Below are positions 29,562 through 64,000 of a stretch of DNA of 64,000 nucleotides, piece by piece. The position numbers and the translations under genes were made by a program. Each line of letters starts with the position of its first letter. The first letter of the stretch is position 1. Location: contig CAZKBS010000001.1 in assembly GCA_964551435.1 (NCBI GenBank), positions 79,565 to 143,564 of the forward strand, written 5' to 3'. Below the pieces are notes generated by a model. That model did no database searches. It worked only from the letters and a program-made list of their open reading frames with translations, and was not told the origin of the DNA. This DNA is from an uncultured Micavibrio sp. (lineage in GTDB: Bacteria; Pseudomonadota; Alphaproteobacteria; Micavibrionales; UBA2020).

Positions 29562-29585
29562 TTGGATTTGAATGGGGGTTACGTC

Positions 29586-43086: not shown

Positions 43087-43158
43087 CGGAAGGAATATCC
43101 TGAACGAGGCATGGGAACTTTTTTGCAAGCTCCAAGATAATACGTCCGCGCAAAAGTT

Positions 43159-47795: not shown

Positions 47796-48821
47796 ATGGT
47801 TTACACACCCGGCATTTCCTTCCTCGGCACGACGAATACGCAGATTTCGCGCCTGAAGCAGCTCAATACCACGCTGACCGATTTGCAGCGCCAGCTGACC
47901 ACGCAAAAAAAATACGACAACGTCAGCGGTTTTGGCGCGCAGGCCTACAGCGTGCAGAAGCTGCGCACCGACAAGGCGCAGCTGGATACCTTTCTGACCA
48001 ATATCTCGACGGTCGAAACGCGACTGCAGGTCATGTCAAGCGCTCTGCAGCAGGCATCGGACGCAGGGCGGATGATGACCGACGCTGTGAGCAATTTTTA
48101 CAAATACGGCGCCACCGATATCGAAACCGTCAGCCTTGTCGCCCGCCAGCAGCTGGATTTGATGCGCGACGTCGCCAATCTTGAAATCGACGGGCGGTAT
48201 ATGTTCGCCGGAAGCGCAACGGATGCGGAGCCGTTTTCGAACTACGGCCAGCTTGACCTCAACATGCAAAACCTTGTCACCGACTGGCAAGCGGGCACCA
48301 TCACCACAGCGCAGCTGATTACCGCGGTCAACAACCTGTCGGATACCGATGTCGGATTCAACCCCGCCCTGTCATCGACGGGCAAGGTTACCACGCAAAT
48401 CGATAAAAACCTGAACATTGATTACACCTCCGTCGCCACGGATAACGGCATGAAAGAGCTGATGCGCATGATGGCGCTGGCGGCAAACCTGCGGCCGCTC
48501 GACCTGTCGGCATCCCCGCCGGGCCCGACGCAGGCGGATATGGACCAGCTGGTCAAACATATCGTCGACAGCATCAATACCGCGACCCAGAAAACCGACC
48601 AAGGCAACGGCCAGATCGGCGTGCATCTGGCAACCATCGAATCCGTGCAGAACCAGCACCTGACCGACAGTTCGGTTTTCGACAGGATTTTGATCGAAAA
48701 AGAAAACGCCGATACGACAGAGGTTGTGGCGAAAATACAGTCGCTGCAAACGCAAATCACGTCGTCTTATGAAATCACCAGCCTTGTCAGCCAGCTGTCA
48801 CTGGTGAACTATCTGCGCTAA
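47796..48821 (+). CDS. flgL: Flagellar hook-associated protein 3 (flagellin-like)
   Basis: Follows flgK. Flagellin-type N- and C-terminal helices (C-terminus VAKIQSLQTQITSSYEITSLVSQLSLVNYL). Confidence 0.75.
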   Translation: MVYTPGISFLGTTNTQISRLKQLNTTLTDLQRQLTTQKKYDNVSGFGAQAYSVQKLRTDKAQLDTFLTNISTVETRLQVMSSALQQASDAGRMMTDAVSNFYKYGATDIETVSLVARQQLDLMRDVANLEIDGRYMFAGSATDAEPFSNYGQLDLNMQNLVTDWQAGTITTAQLITAVNNLSDTDVGFNPALSSTGKVTTQIDKNLNIDYTSVATDNGMKELMRMMALAANLRPLDLSASPPGPTQADMDQLVKHIVDSINTATQKTDQGNGQIGVHLATIESVQNQHLTDSSVFDRILIEKENADTTEVVAKIQSLQTQITSSYEITSLVSQLSLVNYLR

Positions 48822-48850: not shown

Positions 48851-50488
48851 CTATTTCGGATTGATGTTGAAGATTTTGGGGCGGCGGCGGTTGATGTTGG
48901 CAGCATCCTGCGTTTGTTCGGGCGGTTTGGGCTGCGGCGCGGTTTTCATCAAATAATGACGGTCAGACCATGTCGCGCCTTGCAGGGTTTTGAAGCCGAC
49001 CAGTTTCGGCGCGCCCTTGGTTTCAGGGTCGACCGAGCGGCAACCGTCGCGCGTGACGCGAATGGCATCGCCGTTGTCGGCCTTAATCACGCGCTGGCCC
49101 ATTTTTTCCATCGCCTCGGCGCAGGATTCGCGCAGCTTGCTGTCGCCGTGGATGGGCATGACGGTTTTGGGCTTGGCCATTTTCGCCATTTCAATCAGCT
49201 CTGGCAGGCGGGCATGCGCCTGCGCATACAGCGGCGCATCGGCGCGGGTCAAAACCTTGATACCCTTGTTTTTCAGCGTCGCCATCAGGCGCGCATGCTG
49301 GCCTTCCTGACCCGGAATCACGGGTGCGCAAAACAAAACGATATCGCGCTGCGGGTCCAGCGTCAGACCCGGATGATGCCCGTCTGCCGCGCGCGTCAGC
49401 GCCGCGCCGGGCGAACCTTGTGCGCCAGTCACGATGACCACGCTGTCGCGCGGGCGGCTTTCTTCAAAATCGCGGATGGAGCGCGGGGTCGAAAGCACGC
49501 GCACATCGACTTTTTCGCCAATCGAATCCGAGAGCGTCAAACCCGTTTGCTGAAGCGCGGAGAGCGATTGTTCATGCGACCAGCCCGATACCCAGACCGT
49601 GCGCCCCTTTTCCGCCGCAACCTTGGCGACAGAGGCGACGTTTTCCTCAAACCCGCTCATGACCGCAATCACGAAACGCTTGCCCGGATATTTTTCCATG
49701 AGATCGCGCAGCGCATCGCGCACGTCTTCTTCGGTTGTCGGCACCACGTCGCGGTCGGCGCCGGTGGAATCGAGCAAAAGAAGGTCCACCGGTTTATTGA
49801 CGATACGCTGGAATTGCTGTTCATCAAACGCAGGACCCCAAACCACCGACTGGTCGAGCTTGAAGTCGCCGGGGTTGAGCATGTTGCCTTCGGGTGTTTC
49901 GATGAAAAATCCGACCGATTGCGGCGTCGAGTGGCTGACCCAGAAAGCGGACACTTTCACGGGGCCTTCCTGCACAGGCTTGCCGGGGGCGATGGTGATA
50001 ATTTGCGGCCATTCCGACGGATCAAGGCCGGCGTTGGACAGTTCCTGTTCCAGCCGCTTCGCCGTGTAGGGCGTGGCGTAGATTTTCGGCAGCTCATACC
50101 CCATCAACAGCAGCATCGGCAGCGCATTCATGTGGTCGGAGTGGTTATGCGTCAAAAAAATCGCATCCACCGGCTGCCCCGGCTGGTGGCTGGCATCGTC
50201 GCGGCGACGGAAATGGTTGGCGTAATCGGGGATGACCGTATCGCAATCGGTGAGCGCTGGGTCTTCGAGCTGGCGCGCGTCCGACGACATCACCCCCGCG
50301 TCGAACAGAATATTCCATGTGCGTTTATCGCCATTGGCATCGGTTTCGCTATAGCTACAAAGCCCGCTGTTCATGCCGATGCGGTGTTTGTTATTCCCGC
50401 CCAGAATATGCCAGTGCAGCGACCTGCCCGAATGTCCGTCGCGATCGCCGTTATCGCCAGATGGGGGCACGGGGGGCAGAGACGTCAT
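48851..50488 (-). CDS. MBL-fold / beta-CASP RNA-metabolising hydrolase (RNase J-like)
   Basis: FLTHNHSDH (HxHxDH) and a late PIHGD motif. The 545-aa size fits RNase J. The N-terminus is divergent. Confidence 0.6.
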   Translation of the reverse strand: MTSLPPVPPSGDNGDRDGHSGRSLHWHILGGNNKHRIGMNSGLCSYSETDANGDKRTWNILFDAGVMSSDARQLEDPALTDCDTVIPDYANHFRRRDDASHQPGQPVDAIFLTHNHSDHMNALPMLLLMGYELPKIYATPYTAKRLEQELSNAGLDPSEWPQIITIAPGKPVQEGPVKVSAFWVSHSTPQSVGFFIETPEGNMLNPGDFKLDQSVVWGPAFDEQQFQRIVNKPVDLLLLDSTGADRDVVPTTEEDVRDALRDLMEKYPGKRFVIAVMSGFEENVASVAKVAAEKGRTVWVSGWSHEQSLSALQQTGLTLSDSIGEKVDVRVLSTPRSIRDFEESRPRDSVVIVTGAQGSPGAALTRAADGHHPGLTLDPQRDIVLFCAPVIPGQEGQHARLMATLKNKGIKVLTRADAPLYAQAHARLPELIEMAKMAKPKTVMPIHGDSKLRESCAEAMEKMGQRVIKADNGDAIRVTRDGCRSVDPETKGAPKLVGFKTLQGATWSDRHYLMKTAPQPKPPEQTQDAANINRRRPKIFNINPK

Positions 50489-50493: not shown

Positions 50494-50832
50494 TTAACTC
50501 CCGCTATCCGATTTTTTACCGCCACTGCCGCGCAGCGCGGCCCCGTCCGCATAACAAACAGGAGAAGACATCTCGACCGCTTCGGCCGCGGCATCCGCAA
50601 ACGCGGCGCTGCGCGGCGTCATGCCGCAGCGCGCATCGGCAACACGCATCCAGGTCCAGAGAATTTTATCGAGAATGCGTGCATCCGGCGGAATCGCCGC
50701 ATCACAAAAGCCGGGGAGCGCCACAATCAGGCGGCGCAGGGATTCGCCATCGAGCGCGAGCCTGTCCTGTTCGGGATAGGCCGCCCAGAGGGCTTCTGCA
50801 AGACGATCCTGTTCTGACCAGGACAGTTGCAT
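50494..50832 (-). CDS. IscX (YfhJ)-like small acidic protein with a C-terminal extension
   Basis: LSWSEQDRLAEALWAAYPEQDRLALDGESLRRLIVALPGFCD...ILDKILWTWM parallels E. coli IscX ([21 protein letters not shown]...ILEAILLVWL). Confidence 0.5.
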   Translation of the reverse strand: MQLSWSEQDRLAEALWAAYPEQDRLALDGESLRRLIVALPGFCDAAIPPDARILDKILWTWMRVADARCGMTPRSAAFADAAAEAVEMSSPVCYADGAALRGSGGKKSDSGS

Positions 50833-51030: not shown

Positions 51031-52359
51031 TTACGGGGCGCGGTTGGTCGGCAGGTCTTTGCTGTCGAATTTCGGAATATTGATGTCCATATCGGAAGCA
51101 AAAGCCGCCGTTTCCATGAACACCATTTCTTCCATACGTTTGTAGAGTTCGTTCATCTGCTGCAGGCGCACGGCGTTGACCGTCCCCTGTTCACGGATGA
51201 CCTGTTCGGGGCTTTCGATCAGGCGCACGATATATTGCGGGTTATGGAAGCGGTCTTTGCTGACCGCATGCACGATTTCCGCATAGCTGGCGTCGGTCGA
51301 GGCATCCGCCGCAGGCAAACCCGAAGCCGTACGCATTTCCTGCGTATTGACCTTGCTGCCCCCGACACGCTGGCCAATCATCAGCGCCACGGCGTTATAG
51401 ATGGTGTTCTGACGTGCCGTCAGAGCGCGGCGGCGCAGCAGCGTTTGCTGACCCGCAGGCGACTGCACCACAGATTCCGGCACCGGCGGCAGGGATTTGG
51501 GCGCCAGCATGTATTTCATGACAGCATCGACGACCAACCGGTTATCGGGCGATGTCGCATCAATCGTCTGACGGTCACCCCACAGCAAGGCAGGCAAGTC
51601 GACATGACGACCGGCCAAATCACCCGGCGCGCCATCACAACCCTGACCGCCTTTGTCGGGGTCGCAGAAGCGGGTGATATATTCCTGCCAGCGTTCGTTC
51701 TGGTCGGCAGCCGTGCTGCGGCCTGCTGCAGTACCTTCCGCGTTCATCCGGCGGGGCTGGGATTGTTTTGCCAGGGCGCGGGCTGTCGCGCGCGCCATGC
51801 GCGCGGCCTTGCCAACGCCCGAACCGCCGGGGGGCGGACTGCTCGGATTGGCGTTACCCGTGGCGATCGCGTCGAACTGGCAGGCGATTTCGCTCGGCTG
51901 GTAACGGCGGAGCGCTTCAACCTGACGTCTTTGGATATCCTGCATATATTCGTTCTGGTTTTGCGCATCCATCATGGAGCCGTAAACACGGCTCTGGTCG
52001 ATTTGCGAGGCGTGCAACTGGCTGGTCATTTGCTTCAACGCCGGTTCGAAATGTTCACGCCACCACACCGACAGACCTTCGCGGATATTCTGGTCGAACT
52101 CCTCGAGGCGGGTGATGACTTCGTTTTTCGCGGTATTGGTGATTTTATCTTCGATAAAATTTTCTTCCTGTTCGATGAAATCGTTCAGGTCGTCTGCAAT
52201 ATCCTGCGCCATCTGGTTGAACGTCGAGGTCGCGGTGAAAGAGTTTTCGCACTGCGCGCGCGCAATGCCCGGCGCAAACAGCACCGGCAGGGCCAGCGCC
52301 AACGCCAACGCGGGAATAACCCCGACAGCCTTGCGTTTACTGGTTCGTCGGCAATTCAT
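51031..52359 (-). CDS. Secreted Cys-containing protein, paralog 4 of 4 (unassigned family; IcmX-like?)
   Basis: Signal peptide ...PGIARA|QCE. Shares blocks with the three upstream genes: VWWREHFEPALKQMTSQL, RFCDPDKGGQGC, STDASYAEIVHAV. Overlaps the upstream gene by 23 nt. Confidence 0.7.
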   Translation of the reverse strand: MNCRRTSKRKAVGVIPALALALALPVLFAPGIARAQCENSFTATSTFNQMAQDIADDLNDFIEQEENFIEDKITNTAKNEVITRLEEFDQNIREGLSVWWREHFEPALKQMTSQLHASQIDQSRVYGSMMDAQNQNEYMQDIQRRQVEALRRYQPSEIACQFDAIATGNANPSSPPPGGSGVGKAARMARATARALAKQSQPRRMNAEGTAAGRSTAADQNERWQEYITRFCDPDKGGQGCDGAPGDLAGRHVDLPALLWGDRQTIDATSPDNRLVVDAVMKYMLAPKSLPPVPESVVQSPAGQQTLLRRRALTARQNTIYNAVALMIGQRVGGSKVNTQEMRTASGLPAADASTDASYAEIVHAVSKDRFHNPQYIVRLIESPEQVIREQGTVNAVRLQQMNELYKRMEEMVFMETAAFASDMDINIPKFDSKDLPTNRAP

Positions 52360-53641
52360 TGCGACCCCCTCCTCTCAGAGACGTGGCTTTTCTATCCAGA
52401 ATATTACCCGCTTCGATAGCCTGTGCGGTGGCGATCTTTTCGGCCTTTTCAAACATGCGGTACAGCAGCATCAGGTTATAGGCCTGAAGGAATACTTCTT
52501 TTTGCGAAACACTGGTCGCACCATCGGTCAGGCCGACGTAGTATCCCGGATCCCAAAGCTGTTCCATGATCGCCTGGCGGATTTCACGCTCCGACGGATT
52601 GGCGGAGGCGTCGTTGATACCGACACGCTGGCGAATTTCGCGGACCTGATCCGATCCATCGGCATTCGTCGGCGCGCGTTCGGCAACGATAGAGAAACCG
52701 AGCGCGTTCACCGCGTCCATCTGCGCGAGATAGCTGCGGTTATGCTGGCGCTGCTCTTTACCGGCGGCACCGTTGAGAACGTTGTTTTCGATGGTCTCCG
52801 GCGGTTCGAAACCCGTGATGTTGTAAATCAGTTCATTGACGGCAATCGCGATATCGGGGTTGGTCATGTCGAGCGTTTCGCGGCCAAACAGCGTCACGCT
52901 GGGCATCAGGTGTGCGTTCGGGGTTGTCGCCGAGCTGCCGCCGCAGGCCGTGTTGCCGCCGTTGGCCAGATGGTCGCAGAAACGGTTGCGGTATTCTTCG
53001 AAACGGGCACGCACCACACCGCCGGGACCGTTCGCCGCGGGCGTACCGGCATTGTTGTTGGCAAGCTGGCTGGTCGTTTTCGACAGCATGTTCGTGGCCG
53101 CGCGCGTCGTGCCGCTGGCTTTGGTCAGCGGAACGGCAACCGTATCGAAACGGCAGCCTTCATCCGTCGGGCGGAAGTTTTGGCGGGCTTCAAATTCGCG
53201 GCGTTGGAAACCGCGCGCGGTTTCGGTCAGGTTACTGCTGTCAAACAGGCTGGACATCTGGCGGGCCTGATCGGTGACGCCGGCGTTCAGCTGGGTGGTC
53301 ATGGCCTTCAGCGCCTCTTCCCAGTCGCGCCAGAACTGGCGCATGCGCTGGTTGAGGGCGGTTTCCATCGCTTCAAGCGAGGCAATCAGCGCCGCGCTCG
53401 ACGCTGTGGTGGTGGCGGTGTAAAGCGCGCTCAGGGTTGTTTGCATCGCGGTAATCGCCGCCGCCTGCGCCGGAATAACCGTACCTGTCGCAATGCCCAT
53501 GGTAGAACCCGGGGCTTCGCACTGCGCGAAGGCGTCTGTGGGTTGCGCAACCGCGATTGTCGCCGCTATCGCCGCCAAAGCCCATACCGGCAGGGCTTTC
53601 CTGCGCTGTGCCTCTTGGTGGTGCTGGGGTTTCGATTTCAT
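52337..53641 (-). CDS. Secreted Cys-containing protein, paralog 3 of 4
   Basis: Signal peptide ...TDAFA|QCE. Blocks QFWRDWEEALKAMTTQL, RFCDHLANGGNTAC, SANPSEREIRQAI. gaaaggg RBS. Confidence 0.7.
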   Translation of the reverse strand: MKSKPQHHQEAQRRKALPVWALAAIAATIAVAQPTDAFAQCEAPGSTMGIATGTVIPAQAAAITAMQTTLSALYTATTTASSAALIASLEAMETALNQRMRQFWRDWEEALKAMTTQLNAGVTDQARQMSSLFDSSNLTETARGFQRREFEARQNFRPTDEGCRFDTVAVPLTKASGTTRAATNMLSKTTSQLANNNAGTPAANGPGGVVRARFEEYRNRFCDHLANGGNTACGGSSATTPNAHLMPSVTLFGRETLDMTNPDIAIAVNELIYNITGFEPPETIENNVLNGAAGKEQRQHNRSYLAQMDAVNALGFSIVAERAPTNADGSDQVREIRQRVGINDASANPSEREIRQAIMEQLWDPGYYVGLTDGATSVSQKEVFLQAYNLMLLYRMFEKAEKIATAQAIEAGNILDRKATSLRGGGRNELPTNQ

Positions 53642-53655
53642 GAAAACACCCTTTC

Positions 53656-55113
53656 CTATTGGTTCGTATTGCGCGTCAGGGCAAGACTGGGCAGCTGTAC
53701 GTCATCTGCCATCATGCCGACCTGAACCGCCAGCGCCAGCGCCTGACGTTCCAGCAGATCGTGATAGTCGCGCAGCAGCATCAGATAGAAGGTGCTGATC
53801 GCGAGTTTTTCCATTTCCACACCGGCACGTTCCATTTGCAGGCCGTTGGCGAATTTACCGCTGTTGAAACGGTCAACCGTCAGCGCGTTCAGCACTTCGC
53901 GGTAGCTGGGGTTTTCAGAAATGTCAGAGATGGGAATACCCGCTTCCTGACGCAATTCCCGAATCCACTGGCCAAGCTGCGAGCCGGGCATACGCTGGCT
54001 GAAAACATATTGCGGTACGGCGCGGATGGCGTTGTACTTCGCCAGATAGTCGCGGCGTTTGATGATGGTTTCGATACCTGCCGGCCCGCCCATGGCTGCC
54101 TCCGGTATCGGATCGACCGCAGGGCTGCCCACAAGGTTTTCCATGTTTTCACGAATGGCGCGTTCGTAAACCTGACCCGTCGTCATGGGGTTGCCATCGG
54201 GACCGATAACGGTGGTTGCGGTTGCGTCATCGACGTTGATGGTCAGCTTGTTGTAGACGAATTTGGTGATTTCGGTATCGGCGTTATAAAACTCCGGCGG
54301 GGCCGGGGTGGTACCGCAGACGTTGCCGCCACCATTCGCATTCGGGTCGCAGAAGGCCGTTTCATAGGCGCTGGTGCGATATCGCAGATAGGCGCCCTGA
54401 CCGTCCGCACCCTCTTCACCCATGACGTTGGCGCCGGTGTTGCTGGCTTTGCGCTGCCATGCACCACGCGTCGCGCGAGCGAAAGTTTTGGCGCGGCCCG
54501 CACCGCCCGTCAGACCGGCAGGCGGGCACACGTTGTCACGCACGACCCGCGCCGTTTGGGTTTCTGAGCGCATAACGGCGCTGTTGGTCTGGGTTTCATG
54601 CTCCGAGTCCATCGACGCCTGATAGCTTTTGTTCAGGTCGCTGTTGGCCGTGTTCATCTGCACGGTCATGGAGCGCAGGCCCGGGCTCAGGTTGTAGTAC
54701 CACATAGTGGACCACCAATCGATCATCTTCTTCTCGATGTCGTTTACCTTTTCGAGCAGGTTCTGCACCATACCGTCAACGTGCTGTGCCAGCCAGTTTT
54801 CAAGGAATACGGAGGTTGCGACCAGCTGGGTGTAGAAAGCATTGTAGATCGCGTTACGGACAAGGCTGGCAGTACCGGAGACTTCGCAAGGCGTAACGCA
54901 GCCTTTGCAGCAGGGACAAAGACCGCCCGCCACCGTTACCGTAGAGGCCGTTACCTGCGCCTGACAGGCGTTGTTGTAAGAGGTCATCGAGTTATAGCCG
55001 GAGGCAAAGCCAAGCGCTACCACCACAACCATCGCCAGCGACGCGGCATATGCCTTTTTCGGCAAGATCCGTTTTGCAAGGCTGCTCAGTCGTTCCTTGA
55101 TCAATGTCATCAT
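53656..55113 (-). CDS. Membrane-anchored or secreted Cys-rich protein, paralog 2 of 4
   Basis: N-terminal TM, then a Cys cluster (GLCPCCKGCVTPC). Blocks DWWSTMWYYNLSPGLRSMTVQM, AFCDPNANGGGNVC, SENPSYREVLNAL. ATGA overlap with the upstream gene. Confidence 0.7.
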   Translation of the reverse strand: MMTLIKERLSSLAKRILPKKAYAASLAMVVVVALGFASGYNSMTSYNNACQAQVTASTVTVAGGLCPCCKGCVTPCEVSGTASLVRNAIYNAFYTQLVATSVFLENWLAQHVDGMVQNLLEKVNDIEKKMIDWWSTMWYYNLSPGLRSMTVQMNTANSDLNKSYQASMDSEHETQTNSAVMRSETQTARVVRDNVCPPAGLTGGAGRAKTFARATRGAWQRKASNTGANVMGEEGADGQGAYLRYRTSAYETAFCDPNANGGGNVCGTTPAPPEFYNADTEITKFVYNKLTINVDDATATTVIGPDGNPMTTGQVYERAIRENMENLVGSPAVDPIPEAAMGGPAGIETIIKRRDYLAKYNAIRAVPQYVFSQRMPGSQLGQWIRELRQEAGIPISDISENPSYREVLNALTVDRFNSGKFANGLQMERAGVEMEKLAISTFYLMLLRDYHDLLERQALALAVQVGMMADDVQLPSLALTRNTNQ

Positions 55114-56420
55114 TGGTTCACCGGCTTGTCGTTAAGCTTGTCTTCGAATTTGGAATGTTCGCGTACGTTTTTACCGACGCGCGCCGCGAGCAGCAGCGCA
55201 TAGCGGTCAAGAAGGTCAATCTGGTCGGACATCTGCATCGCCTGCAGCGCCTGTTGCATCACGAGCTCGCGGCTGTTGTTTTCCGGCTCGTCCACCTGGT
55301 TGACGGTGTTCTGGCCGCTGCGGTAACGCTCGACCATCAGCGCGTCGAGCACTTCGTTATGGCTGGGGTTATCGCTGGAATTGGTGAGACCGGCGGCGTT
55401 ACGGATCGGCTCGATGAATTCGGCCATATCGCTACCGGGCACCCGGCGCGCGACGATATAATAAACCGCATCGAACAGCACCTGACGGCGCGCCTTGTAC
55501 GATTCGCCCTTGAGGAACATTTCCTGCCCCTCGGCACCGGTCAGCATTTCTTTCGGCACCGGCGCCATCGTGACCGGCTCGACGATGTTGGTCAGCAGAT
55601 CGTCGACAGCTTTGCGTGTCTGCGGGTTGCGCACGTCGATGGTATCTTTTTCAAAAATCTCGCCCGTCACATCAAGGTCGCGGCCAACCATCGGGCCTGC
55701 CGCCGTGCAACCTGCCGCGCCGCCGTTAACAGCGGGATCGCAATAATTGGCGACGTAGTCTTGCCATCTTTCGCCCTGATCGGCGCCCGGGCCCTTAGCG
55801 GCAGCCGTACCCTCACGCGCGCCGGAGCGGTTGAGACGCTCACGCGGCGCCGCGGTGCCATAGGCACGGCGCACGTTGGCCGCACGCGCCATACCGCCTG
55901 CGGTGGTTGCGCCAACGCAAACGGTTTCACTCGGCCGCATCGCGCGGTGTGTTTCGATTTCAGTCCCCATCAGCGCCATGTTGGTGCGGTTGGCGTCCAT
56001 GCTGTCGGTGAATTGACCAATCAGGTTCGACTGATCCGCATCGGCGGTGTTGAGCTGTACGGTCATCGCCTGCATCGCGGGGCGCAGGTTATACAGCCAG
56101 AAAGTATCGAACCAGTCGTTGAGGTTTTTGCCGACTTCGAGAATTTTTGCCGCAACCGCCATATCAAACGCGATCATCGCCTCGGTAAATTTGGCGGTGA
56201 TCATTGTGGTTGCAATGGCGATGCCGGGAATAGTCGTTGTCGTGTTGACAAGGTTGATCGCAACGCCCATACCGCCCGCAGCATACGTGCAAAGACTGCA
56301 CGCGCACTGCGCTTGCGATTTGCAGGATGTCGCCACGTTAAGAGAAAGATAGCCCGCCGCCATAAAGGCGCAGATGCCAACAACGGCGAGGATTTTCTTG
56401 ATCGAGCCGAAAAGAGACAT
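55110..56420 (-). CDS. Membrane-anchored or secreted Cys-rich protein, paralog 1 of 4
   Basis: N-terminal TM, then SCKSQAQCACSLC. Blocks DWFDTFWLYNLRPAMQAMTVQL, NYCDPAVNGGAAGC, SDNPSHNEVLDAL. Start could be ATG 56420 or GTG 56459. Confidence 0.7.
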   Translation of the reverse strand: MSLFGSIKKILAVVGICAFMAAGYLSLNVATSCKSQAQCACSLCTYAAGGMGVAINLVNTTTTIPGIAIATTMITAKFTEAMIAFDMAVAAKILEVGKNLNDWFDTFWLYNLRPAMQAMTVQLNTADADQSNLIGQFTDSMDANRTNMALMGTEIETHRAMRPSETVCVGATTAGGMARAANVRRAYGTAAPRERLNRSGAREGTAAAKGPGADQGERWQDYVANYCDPAVNGGAAGCTAAGPMVGRDLDVTGEIFEKDTIDVRNPQTRKAVDDLLTNIVEPVTMAPVPKEMLTGAEGQEMFLKGESYKARRQVLFDAVYYIVARRVPGSDMAEFIEPIRNAAGLTNSSDNPSHNEVLDALMVERYRSGQNTVNQVDEPENNSRELVMQQALQAMQMSDQIDLLDRYALLLAARVGKNVREHSKFEDKLNDKPVNQ

Positions 56421-56479
56421 ATCCAGAAATACCCCCGTCAGACGCGCCCCGATCGTCACCGGAATCGCTGGTTGACACT

Positions 56480-56540
56480 AAACTTATTCTTTCATTCTAT
56501 CACATTTATCTAAAATGTGATATATTTCAAAAATAAGTTT
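56480..56540. promoter_or_regulatory. Nested inverted repeat in the AT-rich region upstream of the four-paralog operon
   Basis: Outer arms AAACTTATT / AATAAGTTT (56480-88 / 56532-40). Inner arms ATCACATTT-atcta-AAATGTGAT (56499-56521). Confidence 0.5.
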
Positions 56541-56564
56541 GTATTTCAGATATTTACGAAACGA

Positions 56565-57890
56565 TTACGGCGTCAGGTCGTAGGATTTGACCACCAGAAC
56601 GCTCGGGCCGTCCTTGCCTTTGTGCAGTTGACCATAGGGCTGGGGGCGGACTTCGGCGAACTGGTCGAGCAGTTTGCCCACGGCTTCATCGTAGGAGCCG
56701 GTGAAGCTGACATCTTTTTTCAGCTTGTAGTCATAATCAATCGACCAGAACAGCTCGACACTTGCAGCATCCGACCAGTTTTTAAGCGTATCGCGCAGGG
56801 TGGCGCCTTTGGCACCGGCCCAGGGCTGCCCCGCCTTTTGCGGAGCAGCGGCCGATTTTTCAGCCGGTGCGGCCAGCGCGGTCGGTGCGGCAACCGTAGC
56901 GGCAGGCGCTGCGGCGGCGGCTTCGGGCGCGGGACTCATTTGTTCCATCGGCGGGGGCACGGCCAGATCAGCCGGTGCCTCGCTCACAGGTGCAGCTTTG
57001 TTGGCCGCCGACGGCGGCAGCGACGTCACTGCAACCGGGCGCGAACCTGCGGTTTCCGGCGGATAAGACATCACAGGCTCTTTTGCTTTCGGTGCGGCCA
57101 TCACGGCAACAGAGTCGCTTTGCGTCCCTGCGGTGCGGCTTTCCGATGCCGGACGGGTGCGGCGAATGGTCACCGGTTCTGCCGTAGCGGCAACGACCGG
57201 AGTTTCGCTAACCGCTGCGGGTGCAGCGGCAGCCGTTTCTGCGGGCGCGCTGGTCAGCGGCGTCGGTGCGGTATCGGCGCTGTCGGACGGCATGACGGAC
57301 ATGCCTTCAGGTGCCGCAGGCATCGGCGCATCAGACGCAGCGAAGCCCACAACAACAACGTTGCCTTGTAGTTGATAGCTGAGGCCCTGCGGCGCGAGCA
57401 TGTCGGTAATCACTTGCTGCCAGGGTTTGCCGCCTTCCCACGAAACCATCACGCCGGGGTTCACGCCGGAGGCGAAAGAAAACTGATGACCCGCAGGAGC
57501 GACTTGCTGAAGCGCAATCACCAGCGGCAGATCGCGGCCGAAGCCAGCGACAACATCCGTCGGTGCCGCAGCGGCAGCAGGCGCGGGCGTTGCTGGCGCG
57601 AAAGGCGCCAGCGCGGGACTGACGGGTTCTGTTTCAACCGGCATGGTCGGTGCAGCGGCGGCAACAGGCGCGGACGCCGGCGCAGCAGCTTTGCCATCCC
57701 AGCCGACAACAGGCTCTAGACCCGACATGTCGCCTTCAACGGGCGCGGGTGCTGCCTGACGCACAGGCGGTTCGATCGGACCGCGCCATTCGAAGCCGGC
57801 ATGTGCCGGAGAACTGAAGCAAAGAAGAGCAACACCCGAAACCATGAGGGCGCGGCCAAAGAACTGCTTGAACGAAGGCGTGTGTGTCAT
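56565..57890 (-). CDS. Secreted protein with an STN-like domain, long Pro/Ala linkers and a C-terminal TcpQ-like domain
   Basis: Signal peptide ...SSPAHA|G. LPLVIALQQVAPAGHQFSFASGVNPGVMVSWEGGKPWQQVITDMLAPQGLSYQLQGNVVVV resembles a secretin/TonB short N-terminal (STN) domain. The C-terminus (LRDTLKNWSDAASVELFWSIDYDYKLKKDVSFTGSYDEAVGKLLDQF) resembles TcpQ/PilL-type domains. Confidence 0.6.
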   Translation of the reverse strand: MTHTPSFKQFFGRALMVSGVALLCFSSPAHAGFEWRGPIEPPVRQAAPAPVEGDMSGLEPVVGWDGKAAAPASAPVAAAAPTMPVETEPVSPALAPFAPATPAPAAAAAPTDVVAGFGRDLPLVIALQQVAPAGHQFSFASGVNPGVMVSWEGGKPWQQVITDMLAPQGLSYQLQGNVVVVGFAASDAPMPAAPEGMSVMPSDSADTAPTPLTSAPAETAAAAPAAVSETPVVAATAEPVTIRRTRPASESRTAGTQSDSVAVMAAPKAKEPVMSYPPETAGSRPVAVTSLPPSAANKAAPVSEAPADLAVPPPMEQMSPAPEAAAAAPAATVAAPTALAAPAEKSAAAPQKAGQPWAGAKGATLRDTLKNWSDAASVELFWSIDYDYKLKKDVSFTGSYDEAVGKLLDQFAEVRPQPYGQLHKGKDGPSVLVVKSYDLTP

Positions 57891-58016
57891 CGTGATGTCC
57901 CGCTGTATGTGCCTGTGGCGTGAAAATCGAATGTATCGTTTATAGTCCTAAAATCAGTCAAAAACAACTGCCTGTCGGACGTTATCGCAGGGTTGCGATA
58001 AAACCCGTCCGGAAGA

Positions 58017-58316
58017 TCAGGAGCCGGTATCCTGAAGCTTGCGGCGGCGCGTCCAGATCCAGCCCGGACGCTTGGTGCCGACCAGCCAGACGCGCAGCGA
58101 ACGCAGCGCGGCCGGAAAGGACAAACCCTTGCGCTCGAGCAGATAAAAAATAAACAGCATGCCGACAAGAAGGCAGATCGTCCAGATACGGAAATGCAGC
58201 AGCACCAGCGCGACAAAAAGACCCGCACGCGCATCGAAACTGAAGAACCGTACGGTCTTCATCGTATTACGCCAGTGCCACGAGCGGCCTTCGTCTTCGT
58301 CTTTATCTGCTGCCAT
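58017..58316 (-). CDS. icmT: Type IVB secretion protein IcmT (TraK-like)
   Basis: 99 aa. WHWRNTMKTVRFFSFDARAGLFVALVLLHFRIWTI...LERKGLSF fits the IcmT/TraK pattern (WRDS..(F)F..DA...hydrophobic..H.R.WT). Starts 5 nt after dotB. Confidence 0.75.
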   Translation of the reverse strand: MAADKDEDEGRSWHWRNTMKTVRFFSFDARAGLFVALVLLHFRIWTICLLVGMLFIFYLLERKGLSFPAALRSLRVWLVGTKRPGWIWTRRRKLQDTGS

Positions 58317-58321
58317 TTATA

Positions 58322-59515
58322 TTAATTTCCCCCTGCCGTTTCTTCTTCGCCTGCTTCCTGTTTGGTGCCTTGTTGGTAGATCAGGTAGTGGCGCCTTTCG
58401 ATGAGACCGGCTTCGAAAGCGTCTCTGGCCGCTTTTTCCATGGTTTTTCCGTATTTCGGAACCATCTGCATCAGCTCCAGCGGCCATTGGTCGAAGGTCA
58501 GGCTGAGCAAACGCTCGCGGATTTCTTCGGTAAAGGGCATGTATTCGCGCAGCGCCACGCGGCCGCCGCCGATTTTCGGCACCAGCGTTTGCGTGACCAC
58601 CATGCGGATGGTTTCCATCAGGGCGAAAGCACGTTCGGTACGCTCCGACGGCTCGAAGGTCGAGACCATGCGTCGGATTGTCGCCGCCACACCCGTCGTG
58701 TGCACCGTAGCGTAAACGGTGTGACCCGTCTGCCCCGCTTCGATGGCGGCAGAAATGGTTTCGCGGTCGCGGGCCTCACCCACCAGAATGATTTCGGGCT
58801 TGCGGCGCAGTGCGTTACGCACGCCCGCGGCGAAGGACGGCAGGTGGCGCGGAATTTCCGACTGCGCAACCAGCGAGCGTTTCGCCTGAATGGTATCGTA
58901 GGTAAACTCGATCGGCGCCTCGTAGGTCAGCATCTTGCCGCAGCCGTGCAGACTTTCGATGAGCATGCGGTTACCCGCCGCCAGCAGGGTGGATTTGCCC
59001 GAACCCGTCGGCCCCGTGACCAGCACAAGACCCTGACGCGGCTTCCAGTTGGCGATGATTTCCGGCTCGATGTTCAGCTGTTTCATTGTCGGCGGCGCGG
59101 AGGGCAACGTACGCATCGTGACCTGTACGCCGTCGCGGCCATCGGCCAGAATAGCCGTCATGTTCACACGGAAACGCGTGCGCGTGAAACGGTCGGTCAT
59201 GACCTCGTAGGACAAGTCGATGTCGGCGCCGCCCGCGAGAATAGCGAGGGCTTCTGTACCGTAGAGTTTGACGAGAACCGCCGCCATGTCCGCCGCGTCA
59301 AGCGCGCGGTAGGTGGACGGGTAAAGCGTGCCGTAAATCTCGCTGTAAACGGGACGGTTGGACTGGAAGGTGATATCCGACGCGCCCTTCTTCACGCACC
59401 ACAGCAGAAAGGGGTCGATGTGATGCTCCAGAAAACGGTCGGGTTCAGCCGGCCATGTCTCCTTGAGGTCGTCGACGCCTTTCTTGAGGAGACTTACCGG
59501 TCTGCCGGCTTCCAT
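58322..59515 (-). CDS. dotB: Type IVB secretion ATPase DotB (TraJ-like; PilT-superfamily hexameric ATPase)
   Basis: Walker A LVLVTGPTGSGKSTLL. Asp box and His box (GHTVYATVHT). About 397 aa. Sits between dotC and icmT. Confidence 0.85.
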   Translation of the reverse strand: MEAGRPVSLLKKGVDDLKETWPAEPDRFLEHHIDPFLLWCVKKGASDITFQSNRPVYSEIYGTLYPSTYRALDAADMAAVLVKLYGTEALAILAGGADIDLSYEVMTDRFTRTRFRVNMTAILADGRDGVQVTMRTLPSAPPTMKQLNIEPEIIANWKPRQGLVLVTGPTGSGKSTLLAAGNRMLIESLHGCGKMLTYEAPIEFTYDTIQAKRSLVAQSEIPRHLPSFAAGVRNALRRKPEIILVGEARDRETISAAIEAGQTGHTVYATVHTTGVAATIRRMVSTFEPSERTERAFALMETIRMVVTQTLVPKIGGGRVALREYMPFTEEIRERLLSLTFDQWPLELMQMVPKYGKTMEKAARDAFEAGLIERRHYLIYQQGTKQEAGEEETAGGN

Positions 59516-60672
59516 AGATCTGCACCTGTCAGGAATTGCGAGGGGCCGGTGATGCGCAGGGCACGGTCGCCGACACGCATCTCGTTGCCGCCGCCCGTCA
59601 CGCCGCGATCTTCATGCAGCGCATAGGGTTGGGAAATTTTACCTTCGGCCAGCAACAGGCGATAACGCACCATGCCATTATAATCGGCGGTCAGCTGGTT
59701 GAGACCGGTTTCAAAAGCCTCTTCGGCCTGCTGGAAACCTGCATCCCAACCGTCCTTCACCCAGCCGCTCCATTCGCCCTGCTCTTTGGCGTTTTTCGGC
59801 CAGAGGATGCGCGGCGGCGGCGTAATTTCGGATTCATAGTTCATGACCAGATACTGGCGCCAGTTACGCGCCGTCGGCACGATTTTCGCCTGCTGGTTGA
59901 TTTTGAGAACCTGATCGGCAACGGCAGCTTCAACGCCGCCCTCGGTAATCACCATCGCGCCAAGGGACTCTTTCACGATCGGCGGCTCGATCAGCAGACC
60001 CGAAGGCGCTTTCACGAGCAGCGGACGGAAATCGAATACCTTGTCGAGTACACGCTCGTAACCGCCCAGACGCTCGAGGATCTGGTAGTTGCGCTTGGCG
60101 AGACCGCCGCGCGCGCCGTAAGACAGGGCCGCTTCGCGCTGCGCGTCGCGGCGCATGTCGAGGGCGATTTCTTTCGAAATCAGATCATCGACGATTTCGG
60201 GCGTCGTGCCGTGGGTTTTGTGAACCTGCTGGAGGCTGATCAGCTCCGGCGGCGGTTTGACGTTGTCGAGCGGATTGATTTCAGGCTTCTGCGGCTGGAT
60301 GCCGAAGAGATCGATGCTCGATTTCGCTTTATCGGCCAGCTTGCCGGCTTTATAGGCCGGGCTATCGGGATCGAGAATATCGCCCGTGTAGTTGCCGCCA
60401 CCAAAACCTGCATCCGCCTGAATGCCGGGAACGCCCTGCATGGGCGCCTGACCGTAGGGCGTGCTCGGCACTTGCTGCATCGGGAAGGGCGATGCGCCTG
60501 CTTTTGCAGCGGCGGCTTGCTGGTCAGCCAGCGCCTGCGCGAGTGCATCGGGCGTCAGTTGCTGTTGCTGCGCCTGCGCGCCTGCCGAAAAAGCCGTCAG
60601 CAGCGCTGCGGCGCAAAGACCGAGAAACAGGCGGGACAAGGCCAGACGATTAACCACCGGAAACGGGCGCAT
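59494..60672 (-). CDS. dotC: Type IVB secretion outer-membrane-complex protein DotC (TraI-like)
   Basis: Signal peptide. Core AALSYGARGGLAKRNYQILERL...LDKVFDFRPLLV...LIEPPIVKE...ARNWRQYL matches my recollection of the DotC/TraI family. N-terminal Gln/Ala/Pro-rich extension. Confidence 0.75.
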   Translation of the reverse strand: MRPFPVVNRLALSRLFLGLCAAALLTAFSAGAQAQQQQLTPDALAQALADQQAAAAKAGASPFPMQQVPSTPYGQAPMQGVPGIQADAGFGGGNYTGDILDPDSPAYKAGKLADKAKSSIDLFGIQPQKPEINPLDNVKPPPELISLQQVHKTHGTTPEIVDDLISKEIALDMRRDAQREAALSYGARGGLAKRNYQILERLGGYERVLDKVFDFRPLLVKAPSGLLIEPPIVKESLGAMVITEGGVEAAVADQVLKINQQAKIVPTARNWRQYLVMNYESEITPPPRILWPKNAKEQGEWSGWVKDGWDAGFQQAEEAFETGLNQLTADYNGMVRYRLLLAEGKISQPYALHEDRGVTGGGNEMRVGDRALRITGPSQFLTGADLWKPADR

Positions 60673-61138
60673 AGTTCAACTCCACAACACGTTGATCGGG
60701 ATCGACGACGATATTAGCACGCAGTCCGGCCTGCAGGCCAAGATCGCGCAGAACCTCGACAACCGATTTCTGCTTGGCCTGTACGTTGACGACAAGCGGT
60801 GCAGACGGCTGATCGCCGTTGACCTGGAATTCATAACCCGCACGGTCGGCGAGACGTTTGGCGATGGGCTCGATCGGGCCGGCCCAGTCAACCGAAACGG
60901 TACGGCGCAGTTCCTGCGGTGCATACGGCGCGGCTTGCACCGATACGCCGGGATTGCGCGCCTGCTCGACCGATGCGAGGGTTTGCAGTGCGGAGGAAGC
61001 TTTGTCGACAGCCGCGGCAAGACGCAGGCTGACCGGGTCGGGAGTAGCGACCATCTGATGATCGATCTTCGCCGCCGGTGCGCAGGCCGAAAGAGCGAGC
61101 AGAGCCGCGGCACCGATAAAAGAAATTTTTTTGTTCAT
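60650..61138 (-). CDS. dotD: Type IVB secretion lipoprotein DotD (TraH-like)
   Basis: MNKKISFIGAAALLALSAC lipobox. 162 aa. C-terminal N0-like domain (VSVDWAGPIEPIAKRLADRAGYEFQVNGDQPSAPLVVNV...VVELNY). Confidence 0.8.
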   Translation of the reverse strand: MNKKISFIGAAALLALSACAPAAKIDHQMVATPDPVSLRLAAAVDKASSALQTLASVEQARNPGVSVQAAPYAPQELRRTVSVDWAGPIEPIAKRLADRAGYEFQVNGDQPSAPLVVNVQAKQKSVVEVLRDLGLQAGLRANIVVDPDQRVVELNYAPVSGG

Positions 61139-61204
61139 GAGAGTTGTTCCATCACTGCCCGAAAAAAGGGAAACACATTTGCGTGGACTGATTTTAACCA
61201 TTTT

Positions 61205-61232
61205 CAGTCGCAATGCAAACGGCATGCGACTG
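61205..61232. other. Stable hairpin in the transglycosylase-dotD intergenic region
   Basis: CAGTCGCAATGC-aaacg-GCATGCGACTG (one bulged base). Flanked by T/A runs. Confidence 0.4.
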
Positions 61233-61290
61233 TTTTCAACATTTTCTCGTCGCTATCTGGAAAAGAGGCGCGAAAGACCGCGCGGCGCGG

Positions 61291-61755
61291 TCATCCGGGC
61301 TTGCGGCGGGCCTGCTGGCGCTGCGCGGCGGCGACCAGATCGTCAGGGCTACGCACCAGGCGGTAACGCTGCATGGCGTCCATGACCTTGCTGCGGTATT
61401 TGCTGCCCAGATGCGGGGTCGCGGAATGATAATAGGCGATGCCCTGATAGAGGCTGCCCGTCTGGTTAATCTTTTTGCGTAAAATCCAGGTGCCGACGCC
61501 GATATTGACGCAGGCGTCATCGCGCACAAGACGGTGTGCGGTTTCGCGCGGCACGTTCCAATGGCGCGACAATTCGGGAATCCAGATCGTATTGATCTGC
61601 ATCGGGCCGAGGTCATACGTATTGTTAGTGTTTTTGGACGCCATGCCGATGCGCCCGCCCTCGACATGCAAAATGCCGAGAATCAGCGCTGGCGGCACGG
61701 AATAGGTCTGTGCCGCGGTAAAAATACAAACTGCCAGCGCCTGCGCCGTCATCAT
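61291..61755 (-). CDS. Lytic transglycosylase (SLT domain; VirB1/specialised T4SS-type)
   Basis: ILGILHVEGGRIG...YDLGPMQINTIW...NIGVGTWIL...YYHS. Catalytic Glu in HVEGG. Confidence 0.75.
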   Translation of the reverse strand: MMTAQALAVCIFTAAQTYSVPPALILGILHVEGGRIGMASKNTNNTYDLGPMQINTIWIPELSRHWNVPRETAHRLVRDDACVNIGVGTWILRKKINQTGSLYQGIAYYHSATPHLGSKYRSKVMDAMQRYRLVRSPDDLVAAAQRQQARRKPG

Positions 61756-61821
61756 GGCTGTGGTGCGTCCTTTAATACCGTATGTCTTGTCGTTTCGCTG
61801 CCGCGCGAAGCAGGGCCGCCA

Positions 61822-62706
61822 TCAATTACGGGCCAGTTCCGATTCGAGCAGCATCATATTCGACGGTTTGCCTGCAATCACCGTCAGCTTGCCGTCATCC
61901 GGACGGCGATAAATCGTAAAGGGCGTTTTGGCCAGACCAAAAGTCTTCACCATTCGCGTATTGGCGTCAATCGCAGCCAGCGAGCCATCGACAGCTTTTT
62001 CCTTTGCCAGTGCATTTTGCTTGCCCGCAATATAATCGGACCATGCCGCCCCCGGATCTGCGCTCGACAGCAGCGCCGCCCCGCCTTCGCGGTTGGCCTG
62101 CGCCTGACCGAAGGGCACAAGGCGCACTTGCAAACGGCCCGCTTTCACCGCCGGCTCCAGCGCTTTCCAGTATTCCTTGCAGTGGTCGCAGTTCACGTTC
62201 ATGAACATATAAAGATAAGGCGCATCCTGTTTGCCGGCCTGCACCCAGGCGGCTTTTTTCTCGACCGTGGCATAGAAGCGTTCGGATTTGGAAACATTGC
62301 TGGACGGCTCTTCCGCGCCCGGAATGGCCTCTTGCGAGCCTTCCATTTTGGCCTTGAGCGCGTGCAGCTGGCTCATGGTTTCGACTTCGCCTTGCGGATT
62401 GACGAGATTGCCCAGCACAAGGCCGCCCTGCGGCGTCGTGTAGGCGGTGCGCGGCGGGATGTCCTTGCGCGTCAGAAGCCAGCCATCGAGGCCATAGGCA
62501 TGACCGATGAATTCGACATCGCCGCCTTCGCTTTTGAATTTTTCCAGCTCCGGATGGCGCAGTTCATTGCCCGGTGCGGCCGTGGCGGGTACAGGCTGCT
62601 GCGCGGTCGGTGCCTTTTGCGCGGCAGCCGTCAGCGGCAACGCAAGTGCGGCGCATACAACAGCGGCGGCAACCGTTTTTTTGAAACCGTGAGCGTTCTT
62701 CATCAT
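61822..62706 (-). CDS. Periplasmic thiol:disulfide interchange protein (DsbC/DsbG-like; TrbB-like)
   Basis: Start at ATGATG 62706 with aaggaga RBS. Signal peptide ...LPLTAAA|Q. Has an N-terminal dimerisation-like domain and a thioredoxin fold with NCDHCKEYW (CxxC) and a late TPF cis-Pro-like motif. Confidence 0.75.
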   Translation of the reverse strand: MMKNAHGFKKTVAAAVVCAALALPLTAAAQKAPTAQQPVPATAAPGNELRHPELEKFKSEGGDVEFIGHAYGLDGWLLTRKDIPPRTAYTTPQGGLVLGNLVNPQGEVETMSQLHALKAKMEGSQEAIPGAEEPSSNVSKSERFYATVEKKAAWVQAGKQDAPYLYMFMNVNCDHCKEYWKALEPAVKAGRLQVRLVPFGQAQANREGGAALLSSADPGAAWSDYIAGKQNALAKEKAVDGSLAAIDANTRMVKTFGLAKTPFTIYRRPDDGKLTVIAGKPSNMMLLESELARN

Positions 62707-62973: not shown

Positions 62974-63420
62974 TTAGAGCCTAAATCCGCCCGGCCCCTT
63001 GCCCTTTCTGACGGGGGCGGCGGGAACGTCGAGCGCATTGCCCGTTTCGGCCACAGGTACGCTCGCGGCGGGATCGGCACTGCGGTCAGGCATGGCGCTC
63101 AGCAGCATGCGGGTGATATCGGCGCGCGCGGTAGCATTTCGGGTATCTTTGTTCAAATCGAAAACCGTGCGGTTACGATGATCCTTGATGAACAGGTCGG
63201 GGCCGTAGCGCAGCAAGAAACGCACGCGGGCGGTCGACTCTTTCCAGACCGCACGCATCAGAACCGTCTGCCCGTCGGCGTTACGCGCATTGATATCGGC
63301 GCCTTTTTTAAAGCATAGCGTCAAACGCTCATCGAAATTCGATTCATCGAGCGCGGTGAACATTTCTTCGTTCACGATGCGCTGTTGTTCGCGGCTCAGG
63401 GCTGTGTTTTTGTCGGTCAT
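62974..63420 (-). CDS. Ankyrin-repeat protein
   Basis: KKGADINARNADGQTVLMRAVWKESTARVRFLLRYGPDLFIKDHRNRTVFD. Tail PVRKGKGPGGFRL. ATGA overlap with the upstream gene. Confidence 0.8.
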   Translation of the reverse strand: MTDKNTALSREQQRIVNEEMFTALDESNFDERLTLCFKKGADINARNADGQTVLMRAVWKESTARVRFLLRYGPDLFIKDHRNRTVFDLNKDTRNATARADITRMLLSAMPDRSADPAASVPVAETGNALDVPAAPVRKGKGPGGFRL

Positions 63421-64000
63421 AGCGTGAAGCCCCCGCCGCCGCGCGGTTTTTGCGGACGGCGCGCGATGACCGCAGCGGGCTTCATCACCTCGATATCCGC
63501 CTGCGCGGATGCTGCGGGCGCGGCGGACGCTTTGCCGGTTGCGGTGTTTTGTGGCTGCTGGTCGGGCATTTTCGCCATCACGGCGTTGATGATGTTTTGG
63601 CGCACATTGCTGTCACGGTCGATGCGGCTGGCCACCGTAATCGCGATATCGCCTTTTTTATCGGCGACCATGGTATCGGCGCCGCGCGACAGCCAGTAAT
63701 TCACCATGCGTTCGGAATAGGTTTTGATGCCGATCATCAGCACCGTATCGCCCGCATCGTTTTTCGCGTCGATACGCGCACCAGCGCTGAGCAGAAAATC
63801 GGTCATGTCGGCGGAAAAGCCACCGCTGTTCTGGCCGACCGTCGCCGCCAGATGCAAAACCGGCCCGAAAACGTTTTGGGATGTGCTGCTGGCCATGCTC
63901 TGGCGCACGGAATAAAAAATGCCGTGGGTCATGCAATTCGGATCCGCCCCCTTTTGCACATACAGCTTCGCCTGCACAACGTTGCGGTTGCGCACGGCTT
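63417..64000 (-). CDS. Ankyrin-repeat protein, 5'-partial (runs off the window end)
   Basis: The frame stays open to nt 64000; the 'M' in the ORF track is an internal GTG. GPVLHLAATVG...LLSAGARIDAKNDAGDTVLMIGI. Tail ARRPQKPRGGGGFTL. Confidence 0.8.
   Translation of the reverse strand, partial: AVRNRNVVQAKLYVQKGADPNCMTHGIFYSVRQSMASSTSQNVFGPVLHLAATVGQNSGGFSADMTDFLLSAGARIDAKNDAGDTVLMIGIKTYSERMVNYWLSRGADTMVADKKGDIAITVASRIDRDSNVRQNIINAVMAKMPDQQPQNTATGKASAAPAASAQADIEVMKPAAVIARRPQKPRGGGGFTL

Follow-up and report, generated by a model that had tools for sequence, protein, structure and literature searches.

We examined a 64-kb stretch of DNA from an uncultured Micavibrio sp. (64,000 nucleotides of contig CAZKBS010000001.1; "the window" below means this whole stretch), in which a dotD-dotC-dotB-icmT block, made up of genes related to the Dot/Icm machinery of Legionella pneumophila, a type IVB secretion system (T4BSS), and to the Tra system of IncI plasmids, lies on the minus strand at 58017-61138. 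GC content, open reading frame (ORF) listing, and Pfam, NCBIfam and PDB sequence searches were run on the window proteins. Relatives were obtained by a scan of one genome per species, which gave 77 loci, and IncI Tra proteins were used as probes on the loci fetched (handles of the form L0nn each denote a locus). The ORF listing showed all four ORFs of the block, contiguous and on the minus strand, with dotD and dotC overlapping by 23 nt (60650-60672), dotC and dotB by 22 nt (59494-59515), and a 5-nt gap between dotB and icmT (58317-58321), in full agreement with a preliminary description of this DNA. That description had treated the four genes as the whole block; the genes are as it described them, but they form part of a larger, ~11.7-kb same-strand cluster (51031-62706), and the seven further functionally linked genes that flank them there were overlooked. 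Genes of the cluster are separated by short gaps or overlap, and follow one another in the order DsbG-like, SLT, dotD-C-B-icmT, PilL-like STN/TcpQ, and four paralogous secreted proteins. In the direction of the minus strand, the features are:

63417-64000 (cut by the window end) and 62974-63420, minus strand: two ankyrin-repeat (Ank) proteins just upstream of the cluster (Pfam Ank families).
61822-62706, minus strand: DsbG/DsbC-like periplasmic thiol:disulfide isomerase, 294 aa, with CDHC as its CxxC motif (NCBIfam NF008657).
61291-61755, minus strand: SLT-domain lytic transglycosylase, VirB1 / R64 PilT / TrbN-like (PF01464, E 2.7e-7).
60650-61138, minus strand: DotD/TraH lipoprotein, VirB7-equivalent, with an N0-like domain (PF16816, PDB match, lipobox).
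59494-60672, minus strand: DotC/TraI outer-membrane core protein (PF16932 T4SS_TraI, E 7.6e-70, residues 173-389).
58322-59515, minus strand: DotB/TraJ hexameric ATPase of the PilT superfamily, VirB11-equivalent (TIGR02524, PDB 6geb).
58017-58316, minus strand: IcmT/TraK small inner-membrane protein, VirB3-equivalent (NF038220, PF28014).
56565-57890, minus strand: PilL-like periplasmic protein, 441 aa (PF10671 TcpQ, E 3.6e-12; PF07660 STN, E 1.4e-4).
55110-56420, minus strand: TraW/IcmX-family paralog 1, VirB5-equivalent (structure model with Foldseek, hhalign); an alternative start at 56459 gives 449 aa.
53656-55113, minus strand: TraW/IcmX-family paralog 2, 485 aa, 29% identical to paralog 1 and with invariant Cys, Arg and Gly columns in common.
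52337-53641, minus strand: TraW/IcmX-family paralog 3, 434 aa (alignment; signal peptide ending AFA, before QC).
51031-52359, minus strand: TraW/IcmX-family paralog 4, 442 aa (alignment; signal peptide ending ARA, before QC).

Hidden Markov model searches (PF16816, PF16932, TIGR02524, NF038220) assigned the four ORFs of the block to the DotD, DotC, DotB and IcmT families, respectively, as had been proposed. The dotD frame opens with an ATG at 61138 and its translation includes the lipobox LSAC; the protein matched PF16816 at E 2.6e-37 and L. pneumophila DotD in the PDB (6x62/3ady) at E 8e-24. DotC matched L. pneumophila DotC (6x62) at E 2.7e-34. It has an N-terminal extension of ~170 aa (residues 1-170), rich in Gln, Ala and Pro, which L. 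pneumophila DotC (303 aa) lacks; for many loci of the relatives, tblastn aligned no more of the window protein than residues ~100-392. DotB, with the Walker A motif GPTGSGKS, scored best against the NCBIfam DotB family TIGR02524 (382 bits, vs 238 for TraJ and 218 for PilT), and its top PDB match was L. pneumophila DotB (6geb, 343 bits, vs 208 for Yersinia DotB and 158 for PilT). IcmT passed the curated 40-bit cut-off of NF038220 IcmT_TraK (E 1.7e-24, 85.8 bits), and PF28014 IcmT_2 matched the identical icmT gene in locus L001. A terminator-like hairpin was seen just 3' of the SLT gene and a promoter-like site just 5' of dotD (61191-61283, minus strand), which hints at a promoter of its own for dotD-C-B-icmT; the number of such sites in the region is at chance level.

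The setting of this block is chromosomal. Housekeeping genes in the window include nadA/B/C, ctaA, tauE, der, bamB, a gene for an Iso_dh-family dehydrogenase, rpmI/rplT, and those for RNase J (48851-50488), IscX (50494-50832) and FlgK (45688-47775). The last three had been named as neighbors of the block beforehand and were confirmed; the flgL gene named with them (47796-48821) is putative, its name coming from position only and its product giving no Pfam match. A near-identical strain was assembled as a 2.09-Mb contig. As had been stated earlier for the window, no relaxase or integrase was found. A tRNA was not found either, and these absences extend to the 10 kb past the right end of the window. 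The block does not represent a compositional break (GC 0.59-0.61, compared to 0.54-0.63 for the window), again as described.

NF008657 DsbG was the best match of the DsbG-like protein (E 5e-28), under the curated cut-off; the same 294-aa gene call is found in L001, and most of the 77 loci have the gene in this conserved place, just upstream of that for SLT. The isomerase plays the role of TrbB in IncI plasmids, and IncI TrbB itself matched the ORF at the DsbG-like position in L067 weakly (E 7e-4). The SLT protein matched NCBIfam TrbN at E 7.8e-24 and, by phmmer, the transglycosylase of the IncI pil operon at E 3.5e-8, and its gene is syntenic in most of the relatives' loci. The PilL-like protein has a signal peptide and an STN domain, with TcpQ as its C-terminal domain and linkers rich in Pro and Ala, and is of the same domain type as the IncI pilus lipoprotein PilL; its gene follows icmT in 54 loci. 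Its TcpQ domain (residues 346-426) also matched PDB 9u5s_R, a 114-aa "Lipoprotein", at E 1.2e-6; chain R is contained in 9u5s in 17 copies.

The four paralogs (434-485 aa) have four invariant cysteines in common, and in two of them the signal peptide ends right before a conserved Gln-Cys. They are mutually 25-29% identical. Related species hold a separate positional orthologue for every one of the four, so that the duplication is ancient. Standard searches were uninformative: none of the four matched a Pfam or NCBIfam family, HMMER profiles of the paralogs run against PDB sequences returned coiled-coil noise only (e.g., ApoA-I), a tblastn search of plasmids with paralog 1 had no useful outcome, and a word-based search found only "hypothetical" orthologues, all from the same clade. 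An exhaustive profile search extended the family to 1,409 clusters at 50% identity. An AlphaFold2 model of paralog 1, made from 82 family members, was confident (predicted local distance difference test score 87) and all-helical: the N-terminal part forms a very long helical hairpin and the C-terminal part a long helix, and the domain in the middle is mixed. When both models obtained were compared with the PDB by Foldseek, the sole match was 9ngy_AP1, from the Legionella DotA-IcmX "protochannel" (E 4.5e-3, probability 1.0, 260 columns for the better model; E > 3 for every other match). We took chain AP1 to be IcmX because it has 417 residues, where IcmX has 466 and DotA is far larger (the dotA gene is 3,108 nt; PMC6761968). 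In the paper on the DotA-IcmX structure, IcmX is described as a VirB5-like pentamer with N- and C-terminal helices around an extended domain. A 2025 review (PMC12624023) tabulates VirB5, TraW (R64) and IcmX as equivalents, as it does VirB3, TraK and IcmT.

A paralog-family profile (82 sequences) aligned by hhalign to a TraW profile built from nine diverse MPF_I plasmids at a probability of 97.3% (E 2e-11, 288 columns). The match to a single TraW sequence was weak (probability 1% with a 29-sequence profile and 57% with the 82-sequence profile); the homology becomes clear only with profiles on both sides. Genomic context agrees with it. The paralogs follow the dot block here, and in L085 their four homologues lie between dotI/dotH and icmB, which provides a second, independent link to T4BSS genes. 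The window thus carries four genes of the TraW/IcmX (VirB5-equivalent) family. A flagellar role had come under consideration from the position of the paralogs upstream of flgK in some relatives (upstream of flgK-flgL, beyond flgK and on the same, minus, strand, in L039, L045, L054, L057, L060 and L068, which belong to another sub-clade) and was ruled out by the icmB/dotI/dotH neighbors in L085 together with the TraW homology. That they might be diverged PilO proteins was also ruled out, there being no similarity to the PAP_PilO protein of L040. Over the history of the clade, the modules of this system have evidently changed places with respect to each other.

All of the 77 loci come from uncultured alphaproteobacterial metagenome-assembled genomes (MAGs) labelled Micavibrio, Rhodospirillaceae, Alphaproteobacteria or "Bdellovibrionales" (the last because NCBI files Micavibrio there), and they include complete chromosomes of 1.9-3.3 Mb. 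The dotD-C-B-icmT genes were contiguous and in the same order in 59 of the 77, and 12 of the others were cut by contig ends. The DsbG-like, SLT and PilL-like genes recur in the relatives, as do the RNase J or flgKL neighbors; the two ankyrin genes keep their synteny with the block in relatives whose DotC is as little as ~53% identical. The same locus, usually with its housekeeping neighbors, was retained across dozens of species down to a DotC identity of ~45-50%, which indicates long vertical inheritance under purifying selection and not an integrative conjugative element (ICE) or other mobile element. DotB was the most conserved protein of the cluster across loci (median identity 67%, up to 96%; 95% where DotC is at 79%), and the PilL-like and IcmX-like proteins were the least conserved. 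This mirrors the pattern in Legionella, where DotB averages 94% identity and IcmX 51% (PMC6761968), and we count it in favor of a Dot/Icm assignment.

The preliminary description had placed the remaining Dot/Icm components outside the window. For the core parts this holds, but the four TraW/IcmX genes and the PilL-like, SLT and DsbG-like genes are within it. Its further suggestion, that the system is split across loci, is supported at the level of the clade, where components were found elsewhere in the relatives. In L063 and L072, a homologue of DotO (E 1e-92 to 1e-101 vs TraU) is encoded at a distance of a few kb from the dot block, and DotM (PF23127, E 7e-48) adjoins it in L063. A DotL-like coupling protein is present in L042 (E 5.5e-36). 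A search for IcmB (DotO) yielded 2,036 homologues; among the best 120 of these, those named by their source (NCBI/JGI names) were called "type IV secretion protein IcmB" or "intracellular multiplication protein IcmB". Two IcmB loci, L085 and L086, carry DotI (PF11393), DotH (PF12293) and a DotG-like protein (E 1e-12), then IcmB, with housekeeping genes flanking; in L086, a few unassigned genes separate DotI-DotH-DotG from IcmB. The Legionella order is icmL-K-E-G-C-D-J-B, and the relative order of these genes is the same. By analogy with these relatives, the T4BSS would be complete in the genome that bears the window. DotA was not found in the window or in the relatives' loci examined. In seven MAGs of marine Micavibrionales, Needham et al. 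(2022, PMC9418006) had detected the pT4SSi class by MacSyFinder, the class being defined by VirB4 with over six components and by the lack of a relaxase.

Type IVb pilus genes are a variable neighbor of the block. In nine distant relatives (L038, L040, L041, L042, L046, L049, L059, L066 and L074), genes for a secretin, PilO, PilP, a PilQ-type ATPase and a PilR-type platform protein directly follow the PilL-like gene, the set lying at about 13.6-20.6 kb of each locus; they matched IncI PilN, PilQ and PilR at E 1e-40, 8e-68 and 7e-36. In the sub-clade of the window, the four TraW/IcmX paralogs stand where the distant relatives have this set. PilN/O/P/Q/R gave no tblastn match in the window, nor within 10 kb in closer relatives, and from the list PilL/N/O/P/Q/R plus pilin that makes an IncI-type thin pilus, the window has the PilL-like TcpQ protein only. 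T2SSE ATPase and T2SSF genes were seen directly upstream of dotD in L070 (6027-9285) and L073 (5-3010).

The locus was compared with the systems that it most resembles. With the Dot/Icm system of L. pneumophila (found also in Coxiella, Rickettsiella and other Gammaproteobacteria), it shares DotD, DotC, DotB and IcmT at orthologue level (DotB and DotC matching best to Legionella), a chromosomal and relaxase-free vicinity, genes distributed over several loci in a genome rich in Ank and Sel1 proteins, and the DotB-most, IcmX-least order of conservation. It differs in that the host is an alphaproteobacterium; in that icmT is joined to the dotDCB operon, where L. pneumophila Paris keeps icmT (Lpp0507) and dotD/C/B (Lpp2728-2730) at separate loci (PMC6761968), as the preliminary description had stated; and in having four IcmX/TraW paralogs instead of one, PilL-like TcpQ and DsbG-like genes in the cluster, and the DotC extension. 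IncI1 plasmids (R64/ColIb-P9-type Tra/Trb and thin-pilus system, MPF_I) share the traH-traI-traJ-traK order, which had been noted beforehand and which we found both in an IncI plasmid (traH-traI-traJ, then a 291-nt ORF at the traK position) and in a Bosea megaplasmid. They also share the TraW family of the paralogs, a DsbC-like analogue in TrbB and a pil-operon transglycosylase matching the SLT gene, and their pil genes adjoin traE-K much as pilL/N/O/P/Q/R adjoin the block in the distant relatives. Unlike these plasmids, the window locus is without nikAB relaxase, oriT, primase, exclusion or replication genes and is chromosomal and vertically inherited; its proteins are only 26-32% identical to IncI proteins, and its DotB resembles that of Legionella more than it does TraJ. 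The view that the dotD-C-B-icmT order is ancestral is plausible. The arrangement is less surprising than first assumed, because it is the norm for an alphaproteobacterial order in which a Dot/Icm-type system was already detected (PMC9418006).

The closest plasmid relative was pBSY19_1 of Bosea sp. RAC05 (L003, 14334-20296; DotC 35% and DotB 40% identical), a 709-kb "non-mobilizable" megaplasmid on which DotD-DotC-DotB-IcmT occur in the same order, followed by ParM and a weak DotM-like gene; it is another alphaproteobacterial T4BSS. In the Trw system of Bartonella, a type IVA (R388-like) system, the VirB5-equivalent trwJ is amplified in tandem, presumably diversifying the surface-exposed tip for the binding of host cells; the trwJ copies are recent, similar duplicates, unlike the ancient paralogs here, each with its positional orthologue. 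"Candidatus Comchoanobacter" (UBA7916) and the marine Micavibrionales with pT4SSi (PMC9418006) resemble the present case in having the relaxase-less Dot/Icm-type class in uncultured, probably host-associated bacteria. That survey gives the Micavibrionales result as one line of output, with no locus structure, IcmX-type paralogs or pilus link, and its MAGs are marine.

We conclude, with a probability of roughly 0.78, that the block is a module of a chromosomal, vertically inherited, multi-locus T4BSS of Dot/Icm type (pT4SSi class) in a Micavibrio-like alphaproteobacterium (Micavibrionales-type in GTDB). In such a machine, the SLT transglycosylase is predicted to open the cell wall. DotD and DotC would form the lipoprotein pair of the outer-membrane core, DotB would serve as the cytoplasmic ATPase (in Legionella it docks on DotO) and IcmT as a VirB3-like membrane protein, and the PilL-like STN/TcpQ protein would be a periplasmic part. 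By analogy with the IcmX pentamer of Legionella, the four secreted, Cys-bearing TraW/IcmX proteins may make up the tip of the central channel, in the periplasm or outside the cell, their disulfides being formed or repaired by the dedicated DsbG-like isomerase. IcmB/DotO, DotL, DotM, DotI, DotH, DotG and presumably DotA would be encoded at other chromosomal loci, as in the relatives. What the machine injects into a target cell on contact would most likely be proteins and not DNA, with Ank and Sel1 proteins as candidate substrates.

Several observations weigh against this conclusion. DotB (382 vs a 463-bit cut-off) and DotD fall under the NCBI equivalog cut-offs, i.e., the proteins are divergent. 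IcmB/DotO, DotL, DotG, DotH, DotI and DotA are absent from the window and the extra 10 kb. The genome paper of M. aeruginosavorus ARL-13, the only cultured relative with such a paper, reports that evidence for secretion systems of types III and IV is lacking (PMC3189940). In nine or more distant relatives, type IVb pilus genes adjoin the block instead, so that there is some scope for a role linked to pili; and both the substrate and the target of the system are putative.

A reduced or hybrid apparatus is one alternative: DotD/C/B/IcmT would have been co-opted into an IncI-type type IVb pilus (PilL/N/O/P/Q/R), with DotB as a PilT-like retraction motor and no complete T4BSS. The PilL-like gene that always comes after icmT, the pil set beside the block in the nine distant relatives, the T2SSE/T2SSF genes upstream of dotD in two loci and the membership of DotB in the PilT superfamily are all consistent with this. 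We nevertheless hold it to be quite improbable, since pilN/O/P/Q/R are missing from the window and its closer relatives, the four TraW/IcmX-type genes are parts of a type IV secretion system (T4SS) and not of a pilus, IcmB, DotM, DotL-like, DotG, DotH and DotI are present in the clade (in two cases on the block's own contig), and IncI plasmids place pil beside traE-K without merging the two machines. It could also be that an IncI-like conjugative element (an ICE or plasmid) integrated and that the block is a piece of it, i.e., a plain or decaying DNA-transfer system; the order is identical to that of IncI traH-I-J-K and of the Bosea megaplasmid, and conjugation loci typically carry accessory genes of the SLT and DsbC-like kinds. 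This has very little likelihood: relaxase, integrase, tRNA and GC break are all wanting in the window, the locus was kept with its housekeeping neighbors across dozens of species, indicating purifying selection and long vertical inheritance, TraJ is a poorer match of DotB than Legionella DotB is, and the best plasmid match of DotC is just 35% identical.

A further alternative keeps the secretion machine and changes its target, so that a Micavibrio-like epibiotic predator would deliver toxins or feeding factors to bacterial prey, with the four IcmX-like tips widening the prey range. The window is dense in Ank and Sel1 proteins, typical of manipulators of eukaryotic cells, and ankyrin genes are syntenic with the block, which suggests a eukaryotic target rather than bacterial prey; moreover, the cultured predator was reported to be without a T4SS, and MAG labels do not establish lifestyle. 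In favor of prey, all of the relatives carry Micavibrio-type labels, Micavibrio is an obligate epibiotic predator which feeds via stable cell contact (PMC3189940, PMC12428579), and Xanthomonadales are known to have T4SSs that kill bacteria (as cited in PMC12428579). On balance we view a prey-directed machine as unlikely. Returning to the Dot/Icm-type T4BSS that we prefer, its most far-reaching form is offered tentatively, and as somewhat doubtful: a whole order of alphaproteobacteria, commonly regarded as predators of bacteria, with a vertically inherited Dot/Icm injector, whose tip is built of four ancient IcmX/VirB5-type paralogs, heteromeric or interchangeable, with its own disulfide isomerase and PilL-like protein, and which serves to parasitize eukaryotic cells or to feed on bacterial prey. 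The tip of such a Dot/Icm-type system, one not from Gammaproteobacteria, would have a new architecture.

Effector-injecting Dot/Icm systems have been studied almost solely in Legionellales and their gammaproteobacterial relatives. The present one is a well-conserved chromosomal copy that extends over an alphaproteobacterial order of uncultured organisms and marks them as likely to manipulate other cells. The presence of the class in Micavibrionales was already known, as one survey line (PMC9418006). The unusual feature is the set of four ancient IcmX/TraW paralogs with a DsbG-like partner of their own, which amounts to a natural experiment on variation of the IcmX/DotA channel; also of note are the constant PilL-like gene with its variable link to type IVb pilus genes, and the syntenic ankyrin genes. 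The IncI-like dotD-C-B-icmT order, and in some lineages also the type IVb pilus neighbors, persisted once the system was chromosomal. For annotation, there is the gain of a TraW/IcmX family assignment for about 1,400 "hypothetical" protein clusters.

Dense Ank and Sel1 repeats are typical of bacteria that manipulate eukaryotic cells. At least six Ank proteins and two Sel1 proteins are encoded in the 64 kb. Besides the two Ank genes upstream of the cluster, which encode candidate substrates and whose membership of the secretion system is putative, these are:

23332-23922, plus strand: Ank protein.
23939-24436, minus strand: Ank protein.
25264-26499, minus strand: Ank protein.
38890-39771, plus strand: Ank protein.
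27396-28190, plus strand: Sel1 protein.
41743-43128, minus strand: Sel1 protein.

As candidate T4BSS substrates, they would suit an effector-translocating system. A further, 347-aa Ank protein is encoded just past the right window end (L001, 4209-5252). One contig, L017 (DASPMW010000138.1), is labelled "Patescibacteria group bacterium" and carries the same alphaproteobacterial locus (DotC 65% and DotB 77% identical); this contig was probably mis-binned. Lastly, three putative hydrolase genes occur in a row at 29562-32566 (plus strand), encoding a PAF-acetylhydrolase/lipase-like protein, a member of the Exo_endo_phos family and a BTLCP transglutaminase-like cysteine protease, which may be effectors or enzymes of predation.

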